A DNA stretch of 64,000 bases from an uncultured Verrucomicrobiae bacterium (GCA_963707025.1 CAVPOM010000004.1:128001-192000), one strand, 5' to 3'; counted from the first letter of the stretch, positions 20,404 through 27,668 are shown. Made by a program: numbers and translations. The notes: generated from the sequence alone by a model not told the origin.

Positions 20404-21722
20404 CACAAGCCTCCGGTCATTAGTCCCACAACATCAACTGGTTATGACTATTGCTAGGATTATTTTGAGATTGGGTTTGTGTAACCAGTTGTGCCAGAGG
20501 GATTTGCTCAAAAACGTTCACGCTCAAAATCTGTAGGATTTGGGACAAGCTCAACTCCAGCCTAAGTTCCTTGCGAACGATAGCCACCAGCACGTAAACG
20601 CAGATGGCGATCCAGACTTGCGTCTTGACCGCGTTGTCCGTCGTGCCGAAAAAGTGTTTGATCCGCAGGTTTTGCTTGATCCACTTGAAGAACAATTCCA
20701 CCTGCCAGCGGCATTTGTAGAGTTGGGCGATAATAAGGGCGGGCAAGTCAAAGTTATTAGTCAAGAATACCAATATCTTCCCGTCCTTCGGATCTCTATA
20801 ACTGACCCGGCGCAAGCGGTCCGGGTAATGCGCCACGCTTTGGGGCAGACTCAGCCACACGATGTGGTCGCTGCGCACGCCCGTGCTTTTGTCCACCGGA
20901 CGGGACTCCAACCGGTTGAGTTGTACGCCGGCTTTGGTGCGGGTGACAAAGAACGCCCCCGCCAGTTCAAAGCCATAGAGCCGTCGAAAATCCACGTAGG
21001 CGCGATCCATCACATAGAAGGCCCCCGGCTCGGGAATCAATTCGTCCAGCACGCGCACGTCGGCCTGTGTTCCCTCGGTAATCGAGATCATCGTCGGAAT
21101 CGGGCCGCGCAAATCCAGCAGCGTGTGGAGCTTGATCGCGGCCTTGGTAGAGCGAAATCGCGCCTAGGGGAACAAGCTCAGGCAAAGATCAATCGTGGTG
21201 GAATCCAAGGCGTAAACGGTTTGCTCCAACTCGACGGCGAGCGGTTCGTTGGCGTAAAGACGGCGGGCGCGCGCGATGAGCCGTTGCGCCAGGTCGGCGT
21301 AGATGCGCCAGTCGCGCGCGCCGTCGGCGTCGGCCAGGGTGCTATGCGCCACGGTCGAACGGAAACCCATCCGATAGAGTTGGTCTGGCCGCGAGCGCAG
21401 GCAGACTTCGATGTCCGCCAAGCTTTCCCGATAAGTGATCTGAGCGAAGGCCATAGCCAGGAACTGATCCCAACATGGGAAGCTACAAACCTTGTAGTTT
21501 CCATCGTAGCGATTGACACAGCGACGAAATTGTTCGGGATGTATCCACTCGGTCAGTTGCGAAAAAATCAATTTTCCAGTGAGCATGGTGCCAGTTTGGC
21601 ATCATGGCTGCTGCGGAGAATGACAAAACAAAGTTCAAATCGCTCACATCATTTTTCATGCGCATGTGGTTCCCATTGCGCATTTTACAACTGGCGACGT
21701 TCTCCGTGACCGGATGACAGTG
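20404..21722 (-). mobile_element. IS4-family insertion sequence (second, distinct element)
   Basis: Imperfect IRs CACAAGCCTCCGGTCA (20404) and revcomp CACTGTCATCCGGTCA (21722); no long target duplication. Confidence 0.75.
20420..21586 (-). pseudogene. IS4 (DUF4372) transposase with nonsense codon at 21164-21166 and a further lesion
   Basis: MLTGKLIFSQL, WDQFLAMAFAQ, ALDSTTIDLCLSLFP-stop (normally W), MDRAYVDF, YKCRWQVELFFKWIKQ. Confidence 0.9.
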
Positions 21723-21900: not shown

Positions 21901-22235
21901 TTACAACGTCCTCTTCCCTTCCGCCCTGGCCCTCGCCCATCTCGCCCGGACCGCCGCTGCAAGTTTGGCCCTGGTTGCTGGACTGCTGCGCCGATCCTTC
22001 TTTTTGGAAACCTTCACCCTAGCCCAACGTGCCCTGGCCCCGGCCGCAATCGCCGCCCTTCCCGCCGCACTCAATCGCCTCTTGCTTTTCTTGGCCGCTT
22101 TTGCCATTGCCGAGCGTATCTTCCGCGCCCGCGCCAGAGCCTTAATGAGTTTACGCTTGTGGGCGGCGGTCATGTGATAATTGCGTTTGGCTGGAGTTGG
22201 CACCTCGGCTGGACTGGACACGGCGACTTCTCCAG
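21901..22235 (-). pseudogene. 5'-truncated small basic (Lys/Arg/Ala-rich) putative DNA-binding protein, paralog of 38194..38568
   Basis: KRNYHMTAAHKRKLIKALARARK...SSPATRAKLAAAVRARWARARAEGK. Confidence 0.7.
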
Positions 22236-22687
22236 TATTTGGCCGCGCAATAGAGCGAAATCATCGGCAGACCGACAAGCCCTGCGCGAGAGCTGACGTT
22301 GATAATCAAGCCGCTCTTGTTCCGCCGGAAATGCGGCAACAGCGCCCGCGTGACATCCATCACGCCGAAGACGTTGACATTGAATTGTTCCTGAACCTTT
22401 TCGCGCGAAATCCCCTCGAAGATGCCGAAAAGGCTAAAGCCAGCGTTGTTGATCAAAGCGTCAATCCGGCCGAACCGCCCCATCCCGTCCGCGACGGCCG
22501 CGTCAATGCTCTCTCGATCCTGCACATCCAGTCGTGTGACCAATATGCCAGGCAGGCGGGCCAATTCCGAATCCGCCGCCGGCTGGCGCATGGTGGCAAT
22601 GACGTTCCAGTCGTTACCTGCAAAGACCCTGGCCGCCGCCAGGCCAATACCGGAGGACGCTCCCGTGATCAGAACTGTTTTCTTCAT
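22236..22687 (-). pseudogene. Short-chain dehydrogenase/reductase, 3'-truncated right after the YxxxK motif
   Basis: TVLITGASSGIG, LDV, LINNAG, IINVSS, YCAAK then abrupt switch. Confidence 0.85.
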
Positions 22688-22760
22688 GCACCCCCATCGT
22701 CTCAAGCTTTCACGCAAAAAGCGAATCGCAGGCGCTGGAGCACGGACCACCAATTTCAAC

Positions 22761-22836
22761 GCTCCCGTAGCTCAATCACCAGAGCGCGACGCTTCGAACG
22801 TCGAAGATGAGGGTGAGAGTCCTTCCGGGAGTGCCA
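22761..22836 (+). tRNA. tRNA-Arg(UCG), non-canonical T-loop
   Basis: GCTCCCG/CGGGAGT acceptor; CGACG-CTTCGAA-CGTCG; T-loop TGAGAGT; GCCA end. Confidence 0.85.
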
Positions 22837-22842
22837 ATTCAG

Positions 22843-22919
22843 GCCGCGTTAGCCCAACTACCAGAGGCGCCCCGCTTAGGACGGGGAGGTTGGGGGTGGA
22901 AATCCCTCACGCGGCACCA
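22843..22919 (+). tRNA. tRNA-Leu(UAG), short variable loop
   Basis: GCCGCGT/ACGCGGC; CCCCG-CTTAGGA-CGGGG; T-loop TGGAAAT; ACCA. Confidence 0.85.
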
Positions 22920-22923
22920 CTTT

Positions 22924-22995
22924 GCTCCCGTAGCCCAAAGCAGAGGCGACGGGCTTAAACCCCGTGCAGTGTCAGTGCAAATCTGACCGGGAGCA
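22924..22995 (+). tRNA. tRNA-Leu(UAA), short variable loop, CCA not fully encoded
   Basis: GCTCCCG/CGGGAGC; ACGGG-CTTAAAC-CCCGT; GTCAG-TGCAAAT-CTGAC. Confidence 0.85.
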
Positions 22996-22996
22996 C

Positions 22997-23073
22997 CCGC
23001 GTGTAGCCCAATTAGCAGAGGCGTCCTGCTCAAACCGGGGAGGTTGCAGGTGCAAGTCCTGTCACGCGGACCA
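22997..23073 (+). tRNA. tRNA-Leu(CAA), short variable loop
   Basis: CCGCGTG/CACGCGG; TCCTG-CTCAAAC-CGGGG; GCAGG-TGCAAGT-CCTGT; ACCA. Confidence 0.85.
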
Positions 23074-23077
23074 ATTT

Positions 23078-23165
23078 GGAATGTCAACCGGACACGCGAG
23101 CCGGGCCTGTTTGCTAAACAGTGCGTGCCCTCGGGCAAGTGGCGCAAGTCCACGGCATTCCGCCA
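23078..23165 (+). tRNA. tRNA-Ser(GCU) with 8/4 acceptor/T-stem architecture
   Basis: 8-bp GGAATGTC/GGCATTCC; loop TTGCTAA; V-arm TGCC-CTCG-GGCA; 4-bp GTGG-CGCAAGT-CCAC; GCCA. Confidence 0.85.
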
Positions 23166-23173
23166 TTTTCTGC

Positions 23174-23265
23174 GCGCGCGTAGTTCAAAGTCGAACGGTC
23201 CGTCTTATAAACGGAGTCGCACTAGATGAGTGCCCAGGTCCGGAGCTTACCGGACGCGCGCACCA
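23174..23265 (+). tRNA. Atypical tRNA with UAU (Ile) anticodon and long variable arm
   Basis: GCGCGCG/CGCGCGC; GTTC-AAAGTC-GAAC; TCCGT-CTTATAA-ACGGA; V-arm GCACT-AGATG-AGTGC; TCCGG-AGCTTA-CCGGA; ACCA. Confidence 0.75.
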
Positions 23266-23318
23266 TTTCCAATCACCGTGGTGTTCTCCAGCAATACGTC
23301 AGAATCGTCAAAAGCCCC

Positions 23319-24419
23319 TTAATGCTGATCACCAGTGTTCGTCGAACCTGAATCTTGGACGGGCGCAGGAAGTTTTTGAAGGAAGCTCTCAAGATCAGGA
23401 ACAAGCGTGTTCGCACTCTGTTCGTCGAGAAGAACTCGTAAGGTATAACCTCTCGCAGCTTCATCAAGGTAACGTCGCATCTCAGTGTTCGGCTGGTTGA
23501 ACAATTTCAAAGCCCGGCGTAGGACTGGCGCAGCGTTGGCATCCTTAGCGATTAACAAAGCATGTGCGTAATAGAAAATGCCCCAGTAATCCGTGTGGTT
23601 CCATCCACCAGCTCCGAAGTCGTCCAACCACTTTCCCAGACGGTCGCGGACGTCAGGAACGACCGACATATCTCCAACCTGCACCAGACACAGAGCGTCA
23701 TCCGGTTCATGAGATCGTTCATACTCTTTGCGTATTGTGGCTTTCGCCTCGCTGTTATTGATATGGATCAAGTAGTTCAATGCACCCTGCCGGAGGTACC
23801 AATCGCCGCCGCCATCGGCCTCAATATAGTGTTCAGCATCCGGCATCGCCCTTTGATCACCAATTTTGCCGAGTGCTACGAAGACCTCCTCCTTCACGCG
23901 CCATGCAGACCCTTCCCAGGAATACTGGTGTCGGAGGATTCTCAGCAAAACGTCAGCGCTGTCCTTTGCACGAAGGGTCCCAAGAGTTTCAATCTGCGAA
24001 TCGTATTCGATTAAGGTCAGGTCGGTCCACACGGACTCCAAGTCCTTTTGCAATACTGGGGCAGCACGCAAATCTCCCAGTTTCTGCAACGCGCGACAGA
24101 TGGCCTCCTTTGTATTGTGGTTATTCCCGCACGCTGTGTATGCTCGACAAAGGTTTGCCACCCGGTCGCGCTGCTTTTGGGCGAGTACGCCATTTAATGC
24201 GTCAGGTGTGTTGAAAAACCACAGCGTTGGTAGAATTTGAACAAGTTCGTCGTATCCACCGTCTCCAGCCTCAACCAAGGCGGTCACCTTTTCCTTCTCC
24301 CTGGCGATGCGTTGGTGCCGGCGGTGGTTGCTCAACGACTCCAGAGCATCGGGCAGAACTAGAAGCGTCAGCAACGCGACCAAGATGCTCCAAACCCAAA
24401 ATCAACGTGTCAGTTTCAT
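23319..24419 (-). pseudogene. Membrane-anchored HEAT/PBS-repeat protein; probable true ATG at 24419 followed by an in-frame TGA at codon 6
   Basis: ALQKLGDLRAAPVL, ALGKIGDQRAMP repeats; M-K-L-T-R-stop-F-W-V-W-S-I-L-V-A-L-L in frame with ORF 23319..24383. Confidence 0.65.
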
Positions 24420-24565
24420 GGTGGTCTGTGATAAGAGCGTAACTATTCCAAAGCTGAAATGCACGCGTCATCGCGGAGCCTCGGTCCAAGAAGCCGTTTC
24501 AAATCACTGAACGCGAAACAGCTCCAGCGGCCTCGCGAAGTGCATTTAGCCGGTGAAAGAGCATC

Positions 24566-24637
24566 CGCAGTCGAACCAGCGTTCAGGCAGGCGTCATAAG
24601 CCAGTCGAGCCCAGGGCAGCACTGGGGACTGCGACCA
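24566..24637 (+). tRNA. tRNA with CAU anticodon (Met/Ile2), miniature D-arm
   Basis: CGCAGTC/GACTGCG; loop GTCATAA; CCCAG-GGCAGCA-CTGGG; ACCA. Confidence 0.7.
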
Positions 24638-24642
24638 TTTTC

Positions 24643-24714
24643 GCCTCCATGCAGCAACCTGCGGATTTCTTTTGTAAGGAAATCTAGCCGGAGCATCCCC
24701 GGCTGGAGGCTCCA
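24643..24714 (+). tRNA. tRNA-Thr(UGU), miniature D-arm
   Basis: GCCTCCA/TGGAGGC; GCAG-CAAC-CTGC; loop TTTGTAA; GCCGG-AGCATCC-CCGGC; TCCA. Confidence 0.75.
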
Positions 24715-24722
24715 CAGATTTT

Positions 24723-24799
24723 GCTCGCGTAGTCCAACAGCAGAGACACGACGTCGAGAACGTCGCCAGTGTCCCGACTCGTCGGGACCGCGAGCACCA
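24723..24799 (+). tRNA. tRNA-Leu(GAG), short variable loop, aberrant T-arm
   Basis: GCTCGCG/CGCGAGC; CGACG-TCGAGAA-CGTCG; T-arm is a perfect hairpin GTCCCGAC-TC-GTCGGGAC; ACCA. Confidence 0.75.
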
Positions 24800-24805
24800 G
24801 TTCTT

Positions 24806-24879
24806 GGTCTGCAAGCATTAAAGTGATGCAACTGCCTTTTGAGCCGTTGAACCGGGAGCGTTACCCGGGCGGGCCACCA
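24806..24879 (+). tRNA. tRNA-Lys(UUU)
   Basis: GGTCTGC/GCGGGCC; GCAT-TAAAGTG-ATGC; loop CTTTTGA; CCGGG-AGCGTTA-CCCGG; ACCA. Confidence 0.75.
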
Positions 24880-25654
24880 TTTGGGCCGTGCCAAGATGCA
24901 CCGCCTCCAGCCGGGGACGTTTTGGGTGAAATTGCCCTTCGACGGGGCTGCCCGGCCAAAGGCGGTCCAGCAAGTGGTGCCGGCACCACGACCAGGATTC
25001 GGCCATGCGAGCCCAACGGCTCCGTGCGTTCCGCTCCGGCATGGGCTGCTGCCAGGCATCATCCGTCCCCGGCAAGCCGAGGGCCTGGGCCAGCGCCGCC
25101 GCGATCCGGGCGTGGCCTTCGGCGTTCACATGGAAACGGTCCTCGCTCCAGAGTCGCGGGTCGGAGCCAACCGGGTATGCGGCGAAGTCAATGAGGCGGG
25201 CGCCGGTGGAAGCTGCGGCCTCGCGGATGGTGTCATTCATGGCCCGGACCCGGGGAGCCAGGAGACGGCCGATCGGCATGACGCCGGTGAGGTCCGGGAG
25301 CGTGAAAGTCAACACGACTGCTTTCCCGCCGACGAGCGCCCCCAGCATGCACTCGAGTTCTGCCCGCAGCTTGGCAGCATCGAAACTGCGTTCGAGGATG
25401 TCATTCGAGCCCGCGAAAACCGTCGCGAGGTCGGGCTTCATTGCACGCGCTGGTCCAAGCTGCTCCTCGCGGATTTCCCGGGAGCGCTTGCCGCGCACAC
25501 CCAGGTTAGCGTAGAGCAACCCGCCCTGCGCTTGCGCCACGCGCTCTGCCAGACGGTTCGCCCAGCCACGGTAACCGCCCGCCCCATCCGGGTCTTGGAG
25601 CCCCTCGGTGGAACTGTCGCCGATCGCGACGTAGCGATCGAATCGGAGCGTCAT
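24818..25654 (-). CDS. SGNH/GDSL hydrolase; natural 3' end lost near 24895, frame reads through into tRNA antisense
   Basis: YVAIGDSSTEG, YANLGVRG, FAGSND, DRFHVNAEGH. Confidence 0.85.
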   Translation of the reverse strand: MTLRFDRYVAIGDSSTEGLQDPDGAGGYRGWANRLAERVAQAQGGLLYANLGVRGKRSREIREEQLGPARAMKPDLATVFAGSNDILERSFDAAKLRAELECMLGALVGGKAVVLTFTLPDLTGVMPIGRLLAPRVRAMNDTIREAAASTGARLIDFAAYPVGSDPRLWSEDRFHVNAEGHARIAAALAQALGLPGTDDAWQQPMPERNARSRWARMAESWSWCRHHLLDRLWPGSPVEGQFHPKRPRLEAVHLGTAQMVARPGNAPGSTAQKAVASL

Positions 25655-25759
25655 GACGATATTGTGCGGGATGGCAACGGGGCACGTCTATGTGAACTTG
25701 AAGAAGATGCATTTTCAAACCGGCGGATTTACCCCGTTTTCGGACCGCCACTGACATTT

Positions 25760-25834
25760 TGCCGGGTCGTCTAATTCGTAGGACACTGCCCTTTGAAGGC
25801 GCTTATGTTGGTGCAAATCCAGCCCCGGCAGCCA
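25760..25834 (+). tRNA. tRNA-Gln(UUG)
   Basis: TGCCGGG/CCCGGCA (U1-A72); loop CTTTGAA; GTTGG-TGCAAAT-CCAGC; GCCA. Confidence 0.8.
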
Positions 25835-25839
25835 ATTTT

Positions 25840-25913
25840 CGCCCGGTGGTGAAATAGGATCACGTCCGGCCTACACCCGGAAATCGAGGGGGCAGAACCT
25901 TCCCGGGCGACCA
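25840..25913 (+). tRNA. tRNA-Val(UAC)
   Basis: CGCCCGG/CCGGGCG; TCCGG-CCTACAC-CCGGA; GAGGG-GGCAGAA-CCTTC; ACCA. Confidence 0.8.
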
Positions 25914-25914
25914 T

Positions 25915-25989
25915 TGCCTCGTTGCATAATCAGGAGTGCGCCGGTCTCTGACACCGGAAGACCTGGAGCAAAACCAGGCGAGGCAGCCA
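25915..25989 (+). tRNA. tRNA-Gln(CUG)
   Basis: TGCCTCG/CGAGGCA; CCGGT-CTCTGAC-ACCGG; CCTGG-AGCAAAA-CCAGG; GCCA. Confidence 0.85.
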
Positions 25990-26046
25990 ATTTCATCGTG
26001 AACCCTAATCCCGACCGGCGGGGGTCGAATCGAAATAAATCATTTT

Positions 26047-26091
26047 TATCTTGTTTTTATGATAAACCTTATTTATCCTGTTTACATGATA
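26047..26091. promoter_or_regulatory. Two HipB-type operators
   Basis: TATC-N10-GATA at 26047-26064 and 26074-26091, same 18-bp geometry as E. coli TATCC-N8-GGATA. Confidence 0.75.
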
Positions 26092-26336
26092 TGACGGACT
26101 ACCCGATCAAAACGCCGCAACAGCTTGGCTCTGTGCTCCAAGGATATCGGAGGGAGCAGAGACTGACCCAACAGGCGGTCGGAGCCAAAGTGGGGCTCGC
26201 GCAAAACGCCGTTTCGCAAATTGAGGCCGACCCGGGGAGCGCCGGATTGGCGCGAATCTTCAAGTTATTGGCCGCCCTCGATCTTGAACTTGTCGTGCGG
26301 CCGAGGAAAGCAAACGCACGCCAGTCAGACTGGTGA
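26091..26336 (+). CDS. hipB: HipB-like XRE antitoxin
   Basis: IKTPQQLGSVLQGYRREQRLTQQAVGAKVGLAQNAVSQIE; directly upstream of hipA. Confidence 0.85.
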   Translation: MTDYPIKTPQQLGSVLQGYRREQRLTQQAVGAKVGLAQNAVSQIEADPGSAGLARIFKLLAALDLELVVRPRKANARQSDW

Positions 26337-26339
26337 CGT

Positions 26340-27668
26340 ATGGGCAGGCGTCGAAAGTCCCGCTCCCTCTCCGTGTGGATGAACGGGGAGAAGGTTGGTG
26401 ATTGGCGTGTGGCGGCCACCGGCCAGGAATTCCTCTACGCGGAGAGATGGCTCTCCTCTCCTGCCGCCAGACCCATTTCGCTGTCGTTGCCGTTGCGCCC
26501 TTCCCAAGAACCGTATCGCGATGGCGTGGAAGCATTCTTCGATAATCTGCTGCCTGATAATCGTCAAATCCGCGAGCGAATCCAGCGCCGATTCAATACC
26601 CGGTCGGTTGGGGCGTTCGACCTGTTGCAAGAAATAGGGCGGGATTGTGTTGGCGCGTTGCAATTGATGCCGGAAGACGAGCCACCGCCCGGCATACAGC
26701 AAATCACTGGCGAGCGCCTGACACCAACCGGAGTCGAGCAACTTCTATCCGGGACCTTGGCCCCGACGTTCCATGAAGCAGAGGCGGATGAGGACGCCTT
26801 CCGGATTTCGTTGGCGGGAGCGCAAGAAAAGACGGCGCTGTTGTGGCACAAAGGCGCCTGGCTGCGGCCGACGCATGCGACCCCCACAACGCATATTCTC
26901 AAGCTCCCCATGGGGATCAACACCCAGGGAATTGATCTTTCAACGTCGGTGGAAAACGAATGGCTATGCGCGCAAATAGCAGAGGCGTATGGCATCGAGG
27001 TGGCGAAATGCCGGATCGAAACGTTTGGCCAGTACAAGACACTCGTCGTGGAGCGGTTTGATCGGAGGCTGGCCCCTGATCGGACGTGGCATCTGCGATT
27101 ACCGCAGGAGGACCTTTGCCAGGCGACCACCACGCCCCCGGCACTGAAATACGAGAGCGATGGCGGCCCAGGCATTGCTGTCGTCATGGACCTGTTGCTG
27201 GGTTCGGAGCGAGCGGTTGAGGATCGCCGGGATTTTATGCGCACCCAATTGGTATTCTGGATGCTGGCGGCGATCGACGGCCACGCCAAAAACTTCAGCC
27301 TGTTTATTCTGCCGGGCGGTGCGTATCGGCTGACGCCGCGATATGACATTATGTCCGCCTATCCAATTCTGGGGCACGGCCGCGGCAAGTTGGCGCCGGA
27401 CAAGATCCGAATGGCCATGGCCGTAACGGGGAAGAGTCGTCATTATCGGTGGAAAGAAATTCACGCTCGGCACTGGATCGATACGGCGAGGCGCCAGGGA
27501 CTTGGAGATATGGAGCAAATTATGTCGGATGTGATCGCACGGACACCGGCGGCGATTGACCTGGTGCGCAACATGGTGCCGAGGGGATTTCCTGCTCAGA
27601 TTGCCGAGGCAATACTCGGCGGAATTGAAACGCGCGCAGAACAGCTCAATGCGGAGTTGTCGGACTAA
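26340..27668 (+). CDS. hipA: HipA-family Ser/Thr kinase toxin
   Basis: FFDNLLPD, IGRDCVGAL, RISLAGAQEK, THILKLP, LVVERFDR, QEDLCQA, DGHAKNFS, PRYD. Confidence 0.95.
   Translation: MGRRRKSRSLSVWMNGEKVGDWRVAATGQEFLYAERWLSSPAARPISLSLPLRPSQEPYRDGVEAFFDNLLPDNRQIRERIQRRFNTRSVGAFDLLQEIGRDCVGALQLMPEDEPPPGIQQITGERLTPTGVEQLLSGTLAPTFHEAEADEDAFRISLAGAQEKTALLWHKGAWLRPTHATPTTHILKLPMGINTQGIDLSTSVENEWLCAQIAEAYGIEVAKCRIETFGQYKTLVVERFDRRLAPDRTWHLRLPQEDLCQATTTPPALKYESDGGPGIAVVMDLLLGSERAVEDRRDFMRTQLVFWMLAAIDGHAKNFSLFILPGGAYRLTPRYDIMSAYPILGHGRGKLAPDKIRMAMAVTGKSRHYRWKEIHARHWIDTARRQGLGDMEQIMSDVIARTPAAIDLVRNMVPRGFPAQIAEAILGGIETRAEQLNAELSD

Follow-up and report, generated by a model that had tools for sequence, protein, structure and literature searches.

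Supernumerary tRNA arrays of Verrucomicrobiota and uncultured phages carry a compensatory A18/G55 exchange at the tRNA elbow

This study concerns an array of 13 tRNA genes from an uncultured Verrucomicrobiae bacterium, located on the plus strand at positions 22761-25989 of a stretch of 64,000 nucleotides that we call the window (G000:C4:128001-192000, with G000 denoting the source genome) and within which unlabelled coordinates are counted. The array is an L-array, and it belongs to a family whose members carry A18 and G55 at the elbow, positions that are taught to be near-invariant, as G18 and pseudouridine-55, in cytoplasmic tRNA. This array-wide A18/G55 elbow is real and selected, and the change at positions 18 and 55 is compensatory.

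The original prediction, made from the sequence of the window alone, had noted G at the second T-loop position in 12 of 13 genes and AG in place of GG in most D-loops. All 12 T-loops that it quoted are found at the respective genes, and hand numbering gives G55 in 12 of 13 and U55 in none, with A18 in 11 and G18 in none. The D-loops read A18-G19 in 8 genes, A18-C19 in 2 (Leu-UAG and Arg-UCG), A18-A19 in 1 (Thr) and C18-G19 in 2 (Ser and Gln-UUG). A Watson-Crick pair 19-56 is present in 10 of 13 genes, the exceptions being Arg-UCG, Thr-UGU and Leu-GAG; the compensatory C19-G56 swap proposed for Leu-UAG is real and recurs in homologues, and the C19/A56 mismatch of Arg-UCG as well as a covariation between positions 54 and 58 (see below) go beyond what had been claimed. 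CCA is encoded in 12 of 13 genes, and all fold into cloverleaves with paired stems except for the aberrant T-arm of Leu-GAG. Outside the arrays, U55 is found in 45 of 46 tRNAs of the source genome (47 ARAGORN calls parsed, one of them judged false; four unparsed), so that G55 is carried by 12/13 genes in the window array versus 1/46 elsewhere (Fisher P = 1.5e-10, a value that assumes independence and overstates the contrast). Our cloverleaf parser, which scores stems, U8, A14, U33, R37 and CCA and ignores D-loop positions 15-21 and all T-loop letters, recovered 11 of 13 genes, and folding and homology served to place Ser and Ile-UAU. ARAGORN calls only 5 of 13 and the Rfam gathering score is reached by 6; gene finders thus miss many such genes, and tRNA counts are too low in these genomes and phages. 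The genes are listed here with the methods that support them, all on the plus strand; paralogues are their counterparts in two further arrays of the same genome, on contigs C2 and C8.

22761..22836, plus strand: tRNA-Arg(UCG); T-loop TGAGAGT; A18, G55; C19/A56 mismatch; CCA encoded; 97% match to the C2 paralogue (ARAGORN, Rfam with 54.7 bits, parser)
22843..22919, plus strand: tRNA-Leu(UAG); TGGAAAT; short variable arm; A18/G55 with swapped C19-G56 (ARAGORN, Rfam, parser)
22924..22998, plus strand: tRNA-Leu(UAA); TGCAAAT; short variable arm; A18-G19/G55-C56; CCC at the 3' end, abutting tRNA-Leu(CAA) (ARAGORN, Rfam, parser)
22997..23073, plus strand: tRNA-Leu(CAA); TGCAAGT; short variable arm; A18-G19/G55-C56 (ARAGORN, Rfam, parser)
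23078..23165, plus strand: tRNA-Ser(GCU); CGCAAGT; 8/4 type with long variable arm and G73; C54, G55; C18 in the window, A in homologues of 87-95% identity; missed by both ARAGORN and Rfam (folding, homologues)
23174..23265, plus strand: tRNA with UAU anticodon (Ile by anticodon); long variable arm, A73; A18-G19; 6-nt T-loop AGCTTA, AGCGTTA in most homologues; fold z = -3.5 (folding, homologues)
24566..24637, plus strand: tRNA-Met(CAU)-like; GGCAGCA; compact D-arm with CAGC tetraloop; G54-G58, G55; weak anticodon stem; homologues in loci L107, L025 and L079 (folding, homologues)
24643..24714, plus strand: tRNA-Thr(UGU); AGCATCC; compact D-arm; A54-U58, G55; D-loop CAAC, where AG is parsed in homologues (parser, folding, homologues)
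24723..24799, plus strand: tRNA-Leu(GAG); D-loop A18-G19; aberrant hairpin in place of the T-arm, sole gene without G55; homologues have T-loops TGCAAAT/TGCGAAT (parser, homologues)
24806..24879, plus strand: tRNA-Lys(UUU); AGCGTTA; A18-G19, A54-U58, G55; one anticodon-stem mismatch, not in homologues (parser, homologues)
25760..25834, plus strand: tRNA-Gln(UUG); TGCAAAT; C18-G19, G55; anticodon-stem mismatch, not in the C2 paralogue (ARAGORN, Rfam, parser, homologues)
25840..25913, plus strand: tRNA-Val(UAC); GGCAGAA; A18-G19, G54-G58, G55 (Rfam with 41.7 bits, parser)
25915..25989, plus strand: tRNA-Gln(CUG), the last gene of the array; AGCAAAA; A18-G19, A54-A58, G55 (Rfam, parser)

Several members are unusual in other parts of the molecule. 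Met-CAU and Thr-UGU (24566-24714), like Trp-CCA in loci L025 and L026, combine a lengthened anticodon stem with a compact D-arm that carries a CAGC-type tetraloop, both of which are kept in homologues, and a decayed tRNA-like piece with a 39-nt match in locus L156 lies directly before Met-CAU at 24490-24560. The four tRNA-Leu genes (22843-23073, 24723-24799) have short variable arms, as they do in the Anabaena operon and in a Streptomyces phage (L047, L043). The tRNA with UAU anticodon keeps its long variable arm and A73 in homologues, and charging with Leu or Ser would misread AUA. The window tRNA-Leu(GAG) is probably damaged; its T-arm (24767-24787) is a 7-bp hairpin whose loop is the reverse complement of the usual CGAGT, and a local inversion is possible.

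Further evidence comes from homologous arrays. After 280 loci had been scanned, 10 without arrays dropped (10 of 18 in one set of fetched regions, removed before counting) and the window added, we were left with 2,641 distinct array tRNAs, of which the 2,625 with a 7-nt T-loop comprise 1,864 with G55, 725 with U55, 34 with C55 and 2 with A55. Position 55 is therefore far from random, as the original prediction required, being G or U in 2,589 of 2,625 homologues. Since it also tracks position 18, pseudogene decay is ruled out as the source of G55; stem mismatches amount to 0.36 per G55 tRNA versus 0.32 per U55 tRNA. Among 782 tRNAs with an unambiguous 7-nt D-loop, in which numbering is fixed independently of the T-loop, A18 accompanies G55 in 507 of 592 cases, and G18 accompanies U55 in 167 of 173 and C55 in 15 of 17; A18/U55 intermediates are limited to 2 of the 173 U55 tRNAs. 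Positions 19 and 56 match as G-C in 670 of 751 tRNAs with C56, as U-A in 10 of 16 with A56, as A-U in 10 of 10 with U56 and as C-G in 2 of 5 with G56. Within the G55 tRNAs, position 57 is a purine in 1,861 of 1,864, and the 54-58 pair is U-A or C-A in 1,414 of 1,864 and otherwise mostly A-U, G-G, C-C or A-A, with G54 facing G58 in 169 of 170 cases and A54 facing U58 in 198 of 230. U54 is lacking in 584 of 1,864 G55 tRNAs versus 46 of 725 U55 tRNAs. The 19-56 pair is loosest in Arg-UCG and Arg-UCU.

Weighted mutual information with average-product correction was computed for 727 homologous array tRNAs (effective number 472; 2,556 column pairs) and combined with permutations. The top 17 pairs are stems, followed by 54-58 at rank 18 and 18-55 at rank 20, with 19-56 at rank 32; the control tertiary pairs 8-14, 15-48 and 9-23 occupy ranks 26-28, and 26-44 and 13-46 reach only 85 and 97. 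All three elbow pairs, including the 18/55 and 19/56 covariation that the original prediction had called for, exceed 1,000 shuffles within anticodon families and another 1,000 within loci, the mutual information of 18 and 55 being 0.697 compared to maxima of 0.045 and 0.236, respectively. Position 60 covaries with 54-58 too (ranks 21 and 22), U60 going with U-A and A60 with A-U and G-G. In 150 disjoint pairs of nearest neighbours that differ at position 55 and span 34 anticodons, we found 114 clean switches between AG and GG, 23 compatible cases in which one side has both motifs, 2 with the same motif and 11 that are uninformative; kin are not fully independent in this test, and the switch recurs in 34 anticodon families. 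Neighbours that differ at position 56 carry the matching D-loop motif in 68 of 94 cases versus 22 of 94 with swapped partners. The original prediction is thus supported in part, the change being common to unrelated isoacceptors and compensatory.

Further arrays were collected with a pattern of two adjacent G55 T-arms, which selects for G55, so that its counts are not prevalences, and which holds no D-loop letters and is therefore unable to create 18/55 covariation; the first homologous arrays had come from BLAST and not from this pattern. It matches at least 141 stretches in genome contigs, mostly of Verrucomicrobiota, with record titles among the matches listed that also name Planctomycetota, Myxococcales, Acidobacteriota, Cyanobacteria, Chloroflexales and others, and 116 stretches in viral contigs. 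Of 151 related genomes including the source genome, 38 carry the pattern and none its reversed version. At loci with at least eight tRNAs, G55 reaches at least 80% in 54 of 68 from genome contigs and in 29 of 77 from viral contigs, and the rest are mixed (overlapping loci unmerged). A cultured phage with a G55 set was not found among the matches examined, and a strict Ile-GAU pattern has no match in viral contigs. The trait is not a property of all L-arrays or phage arrays, an idea that is ruled out by loci L043-L046 and L356 without G55 and by the Anabaena operon with 2 of 21; likewise, no G55 occurs in control arrays of a Streptomyces phage, three plasmids and cyanophage S-CBWM1. The 46 credible tRNAs parsed outside the three arrays of the source genome mark these arrays as supernumerary, and their patchy spread and viral occurrences fit the mobility expected of L-arrays.

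Some array tRNAs follow other patterns. In arrays with at least 80% G55 (e.g., L028, L029, L066, L071 and L084), the non-G55 members are enriched for Met-CAU, which accounts for 13 of 44 and is in many cases initiator-like. A third elbow type that combines G18 with C55 (TCCGA loops) is represented by 34 sequences in mixed phage arrays such as L204, L217 and L244, where A54-U55 and U56 variants are enriched too. Locus L103, from a record titled Staphylococcus petrasii, is a cluster of 17 genes of which 4 have G55.

The A18/G55 pair is also present in a conserved core gene. A stand-alone tRNA-Glu(CUC) (G000:C7:240632-240706, minus strand) is the only exception outside the arrays in the source genome, with a HNH gene that is 39% identical to the array type about 3 kb away on the other strand, and is matched in 54 of 61 genomes. 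From 57 other matches and the gene itself, 50 loci were examined (L305-L355) and 49 parsed, of which 34 have A18/G55, 15 have G18/U55 and none is mixed. The A18/G55 form is conserved across its own family and the G18/U55 forms belong to others, and the switch may be a single event; in genomes G449 and G451, positions 18 and 55 are the sole differences to the source genome. Another natural example is tRNA-Ile(GAU) of the Anabaena trn operon, which parses with A18, G55 and G54-G58. This tRNA-Ile(GAU) gave an aminoacylated band in vivo (PMC8421152).

Intact arrays of the family share an upstream region with a sigma-70-like promoter (by eye), a short open reading frame (ORF) and an intrinsic terminator, which in the source genome lies at two places:

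G000:C2 ~113400-113150, minus strand: leader and antiterminator/terminator of the intact C2 array
G000:C8 ~82830-82570, minus strand: leader and antiterminator/terminator of the intact C8 array

An ORF with terminator is present in 45 (including L025 and L026) of the 51 arrays that reach at least 80% G55 and have 700 nt of sequence upstream, the ORFs having been chosen regardless of amino acid content. In 36 of these 45 leaders, all 20 amino acids are encoded within 44-67 codons, compared to expectations of 1.1 (host proteins), 2.0 (pooled leader composition) and 2.2 (random codons). The leaders fall into 22 BLAST clusters, 14 of which have members with all 20 amino acids. Rare amino acids occur about once per leader, with Trp exactly once in 41 of 45, there is no run of any single amino acid, and the number of distinct codons is 39.6 per leader versus 35.5 under a uniform null. 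The last leader codons pair with the 5' arm of the terminator, and both change together between families: leader ends pair at -13.4 kcal/mol with their own arm versus -9.4 kcal/mol with foreign arms, and pairing beats 95% of shuffles in 27 of 40 cases (inflated by the choice of pairs). For the C2 leader, predicted folds place the nascent transcript in the antiterminator and the full transcript in the terminator. We infer that leader and terminator form an attenuator responding to ribosome stalling, and as the leader ahead of the intact arrays holds all 20 amino acids, a shortage of any normal tRNA probably activates the set. Downstream of the terminator, about 100-200 nt before the first tRNA, lies a conserved, structured-looking element of the type CCGCCGTGAAA ... 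GCGGG ... GGTGTGTGTTCTTT that is common to unrelated arrays (L025-L030, L122, L202, L218 and others).

The original prediction had treated the window array as the unit of interest; instead, it is, to judge by its sequence, a leaderless and partly decayed 3' remnant of one of three paralogous L-arrays, and the redesigned elbow is a feature of its array family as a whole. The C2 and C8 arrays are longer (21 parsed genes each and more by eye), have G55 in 20/20 and 16/16 of their parsed genes with 7-nt T-loops, and are collinear in their 3' parts with the window array. An assembly duplication is ruled out for the three arrays, as their pieces are 72-98% identical and the inserted genes differ. 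A HNH gene ends both the C2 and the C8 array and none follows the window copy. Around and within the window copy, we found the following genes:

20420..21586, minus strand: IS4-type transposase in two ORFs (DUF4372 and DDE_Tnp_1), upstream of the break
22151..22759, minus strand: short-chain dehydrogenase ORF, also present ahead of tRNA-Arg(UCG) in the C8 array
23319..24383, minus strand: inserted HEAT-repeat ORF that splits the array
24818..25654, minus strand: inserted GDSL/SGNH hydrolase gene; its 3' end overlaps tRNA-Lys, and a 92% identical twin lies elsewhere on the same contig
25914..27668, plus strand: HTH_3 antitoxin-like ORF ending at 26336, then HipA-family gene (26340-27668), in the place of the HNH endonuclease gene of the intact paralogues

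Similarity to the C8 array in the dehydrogenase region ends near 22236, the point where the upstream part of the array was thus lost; a small Lys/Arg/Ala-rich ORF of histone-H1-like composition and without Pfam match sits at this break point (21901-22221, minus strand). A leader is absent from the window copy, as are any match to the terminator pattern and any upstream array piece elsewhere in the genome, and the search for a promoter gave one weak consensus site inside an inserted ORF, which is chance level. Damage relative to homologues affects the Leu-GAG T-arm, the anticodon stems of Lys and Gln-UUG and position 19 of Thr, and the window copy is probably little used. In the C8 array there are, in addition, genes for a phosphoesterase and Ro60/TROVE, and RtcB lies about 4 kb downstream of its HNH gene. 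Tabulated over 104 arrays, neighbours include HNH in 42, RtcB in 22 and TROVE in 22; with a dedicated partner enzyme in mind, 8 of 23 neighbour clusters were scanned and proved to be HNH, RtcB, TROVE, sigma-70, SPFH, LysR and two without Pfam match, and several of the remaining 15 resemble antisense frames. Directly upstream of the Ro60/TROVE gene, at ~8800-9550 of L026 (G000:C8 ~79300-80050), are several tRNA-like elements with canonical GGTTCGA T-arms that keep U55 inside an all-G55 array and resemble Y RNAs.

Taken together, we favour at a probability of roughly 0.55 a set of back-up tRNAs that is induced by stalling and has a T-loop of the riboswitch type. A18 would take the place of G18, slot between positions 57 and 58 and contact G55 instead of pseudouridine-55, a three-dimensional arrangement suggested by the 18-55 covariation that we equate with the YGNRA T-loops of flavin mononucleotide (FMN) and cobalamin riboswitches. 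The L-shape would be kept with a different corner in which 19-56 stays Watson-Crick (G-C, sometimes U-A, A-U or C-G) and 54-58 is free to vary (U-A, A-U, G-G, C-A or C-C). Conservation and one published experiment suggest that array tRNAs translate, forming a spare and near-complete set in a mobile L-array. Transcription from the promoter would first pass the leader, with 45-65 codons that use all 20 amino acids, and then meet a terminator; the 5' arm of the latter is alternatively able to pair with the last leader codons. A ribosome finishing the leader would cover this segment and transcription would stop, and a ribosome stalled for any tRNA would leave it free and the array would be read. 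A sensor of all amino acids in front of a complete spare set fits an insult to many tRNAs at once, and the spare set would have to outlast what disables the normal one, most likely nucleases or modifying toxins that read the corner of U54-U55-C56 and G18. That G55 was selected as an escape from enzymes reading the UUC/G18 corner seems to us a little less than an even bet. One tRNase on record cleaves the T-loop between T and pseudouridine (PMC9086364), genes for RNA repair are common next to the arrays (HNH, RtcB and TROVE, see above), and of the non-G55 tRNAs, 100 of 553 leave UUC by other routes in mixed arrays versus 3 of 77 in the control arrays (P = 0.0008 if kin are treated as independent). 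We are more doubtful about the broadest version, a self-contained emergency decoding system of Verrucomicrobia and many uncultured phages that would unite a complete second tRNA set on an orthogonal A18-G55 elbow with free 54-58 pair, a sensor of all 20 amino acids and escape from a class of enzymes that attack all normal tRNAs through T-pseudouridine-C, with an elbow that also entered a core tRNA gene in one lineage.

Several observations weigh against the back-up set. The original prediction had suggested escape from elbow-reading factors, and the data are compatible with it, but no such factor and no nuclease that discriminates U55 from G55 was identified, nor is one among the commonest neighbour clusters. 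Of the enzymes described, the OLD nuclease cuts the anticodon stem (PMC12445682), and Cas12a3 relies on shape and charge to bind CCA and the backbone of the T-arm (PMC12851939). Six other mobile arrays (L043-L047, L356) are canonical or nearly so; canonical arrays account for the three plasmid matches and the top phage match of the window query and for the S-CBWM1 match of a homologue query. Escape of all tRNAs leaves the lone housekeeping swap of Glu-CUC unexplained. At the elbow itself, G18 occurs in 66 of 592 G55 tRNAs with fixed register, many of which look like register shifts, 19-56 is loose in Arg-UCG and Arg-UCU, and the aminoacylated Ile-GAU band of Anabaena migrated aberrantly (PMC8421152). 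The antiterminator energies are biased upward, with leader-terminator pairs picked on complementarity. Among 37 arrays with less than 80% G55, finally, an ORF with terminator is present in 12, and all 20 amino acids are encoded by 3 of these 12 leaders; leader and elbow are thus modules that can be separated.

The A18-G55 T-loop might instead serve self-sufficiency if it folds without pseudouridine-55, m5U54 and Gm18, making a burst of new tRNA usable at once where modification enzymes are foreign or limiting. YGNRA is a functional consensus in FMN and cobalamin riboswitches (10.1101/2022.12.26.521914), U54 is relaxed as well in the G55 tRNAs (see above), and the arrays move between hosts and phages; moreover, stress tolerance falls on loss of TruB (PMC5485724), which implies that the G18-U55 corner leans on modification. 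Nevertheless, we consider this explanation unlikely. The independence from TruB/TrmA that the original prediction had put forward is weakened by a truB gene over the family cut-off in the source genome, in which no TrmA or TrmFO exceeds the cut-off (genome 88% complete), so that a U54 methylase from which to become independent may be lacking. Many mobile arrays do well with U55, and the C55, A54-U55 and U56 variants keep G18 and are left unexplained.

It is rather improbable that A18-G55 is merely an equivalent pair, reached by weakly expressed spare tRNAs through neutral compensatory drift and homogenised by gene conversion among tandem genes, even if the swap is tolerated in housekeeping tRNA-Glu(CUC), mixed arrays span the whole range of G55 fractions and the window copy has decayed. 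Drift would have to change two positions separated by 37 nt in every one of about 40 anticodon families, all of which keep their own stems and identity elements, and is at odds with the rarity of intermediates, the non-random position 55 and the dominance of G55 in most genome loci. Very unlikely, in our view, are decoys or repair scaffolds, that is, RNase sponges or partners of Ro60/RtcB with an altered elbow that bars normal use. They would account for the Ro60/TROVE and RtcB neighbours and the odd arms of several members (Ser 8/4, Met, Thr, Ile-UAU), and a sponge role has been discussed for the Anabaena operon. However, a decoy should mimic its target and the array tRNAs differ exactly there; near-complete anticodon sets whose members have intact stems and an encoded CCA, a leader that as a sensor of every amino acid fits replaced decoding capacity, and the same elbow in a conserved stand-alone tRNA-Glu(CUC) count against it as well.

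L-arrays and the A-G T-loop contact are already known separately. The back-up set resembles the trn operon on plasmid delta of Anabaena/Nostoc PCC 7120, a long, same-strand, supernumerary array with patchy distribution among relatives, a HNH gene at its 3' end, a link to RtcB and short-arm tRNA-Leu (PMC8421152). One of its members, Ile-GAU, has the same A18/G55 elbow, but G55 is found there in 2 of 21 parsed genes and here in nearly all, and control is exerted by the repressor TrcR on direct repeats (PMC10272220) instead of the leader-ORF attenuator predicted here. An 18-gene L-array of Verrucomicrobia is counted in the supplement of PMC8421152; the terms "T-loop" and "D-loop" are absent from its main text, as are G55, A18 and T-loop from the part of the supplement that was searched. 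The YGNRA T-loops of FMN and cobalamin riboswitches share with the array tRNAs a 7-nt loop with G at position 2 and a purine at position 4, with most array tRNAs also U-A or C-A closing, and probably an A entering between positions 4 and 5; tRNA T-loops were excluded from that consensus by their U at position 2 (10.1101/2022.12.26.521914). Half of the 12 T-loops of the window (6/12) fit YGNRA. Unlike in riboswitches, the incoming base is supplied by the tRNA D-loop, and A-U, G-G, A-A and C-C closing pairs are common. In plant-virus tRNA-like structures that accept valine, with their D-loop/T-loop contact (de Smit et al. 2002) and in E. coli suppressor tRNAs selected by the Steinberg laboratory from randomised D/T loops, 18-55 is said to alternate between G-U and A-G with functional rescue and G54-G58 to replace U54-A58. 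If so, the chemistry of the base pair is no novelty as such, but those cases are viral mimics or artificial tRNAs and here we see whole natural sets of cells and phages.

The trpL, hisL and thrL attenuators combine a short leader ORF with alternative antiterminator/terminator pairing and stall-driven read-through. The C2 and C8 paralogues similarly have a leader ORF followed by an intrinsic terminator with overlapping antiterminator, but with all 20 amino acids in the leader and tRNA genes rather than biosynthesis genes behind it. Only tRNA-Ser(GCU) of the window resembles the (8/4) tRNA-Ser/allo-tRNAs, with an 8-bp acceptor stem, a 4-bp T stem, a long variable arm and G73 (PMC5389517, with no match for G55, A18 or T-loop in the available supplement); their long D-stem with tetraloop is plausible in homologues and weaker in the window copy. 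Phage tRNAs that resist host tRNases are spare tRNAs, too, which are altered at a nuclease target and restore translation (PMC12445682); there the known changes concern the anticodon arm of single isoacceptors and here the elbow of all, for which a matching nuclease is not known. Our literature search, whose coverage left out older and subscription papers, figures and some supplements and so does not establish absence from print, gave no account of an array-wide A18/G55 elbow and, with the same coverage, none of a leader with all 20 amino acids in front of tRNA genes; searches by term in the available parts of PMC8421152, PMC10272220, PMC4758250, PMC5389517 and PMC7609411 found neither. What we add is a ranking of the covariation with controls, a pair of tRNA-Glu(CUC) forms that differ at two positions, a precedent in Anabaena, the observation that leader and elbow are coupled within the same chromosomal arrays and the recognition of the window copy as a remnant.

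As a remnant, the window copy adds little beyond its array family. With whole natural sets and one conserved stand-alone tRNA using it, A18-G55 is a second stable solution for the tRNA elbow, and why tRNAs keep U55 when other T-loops prefer G is now directly testable. The two differences between forms of tRNA-Glu(CUC) provide a natural double-mutant pair to separate elbow enzymes that read sequence from those that read shape, and elbow-recoded tRNAs are possible orthogonal parts. If the proposed regulation is true, the all-amino-acid attenuator of these arrays would be a general sensor of tRNA supply.

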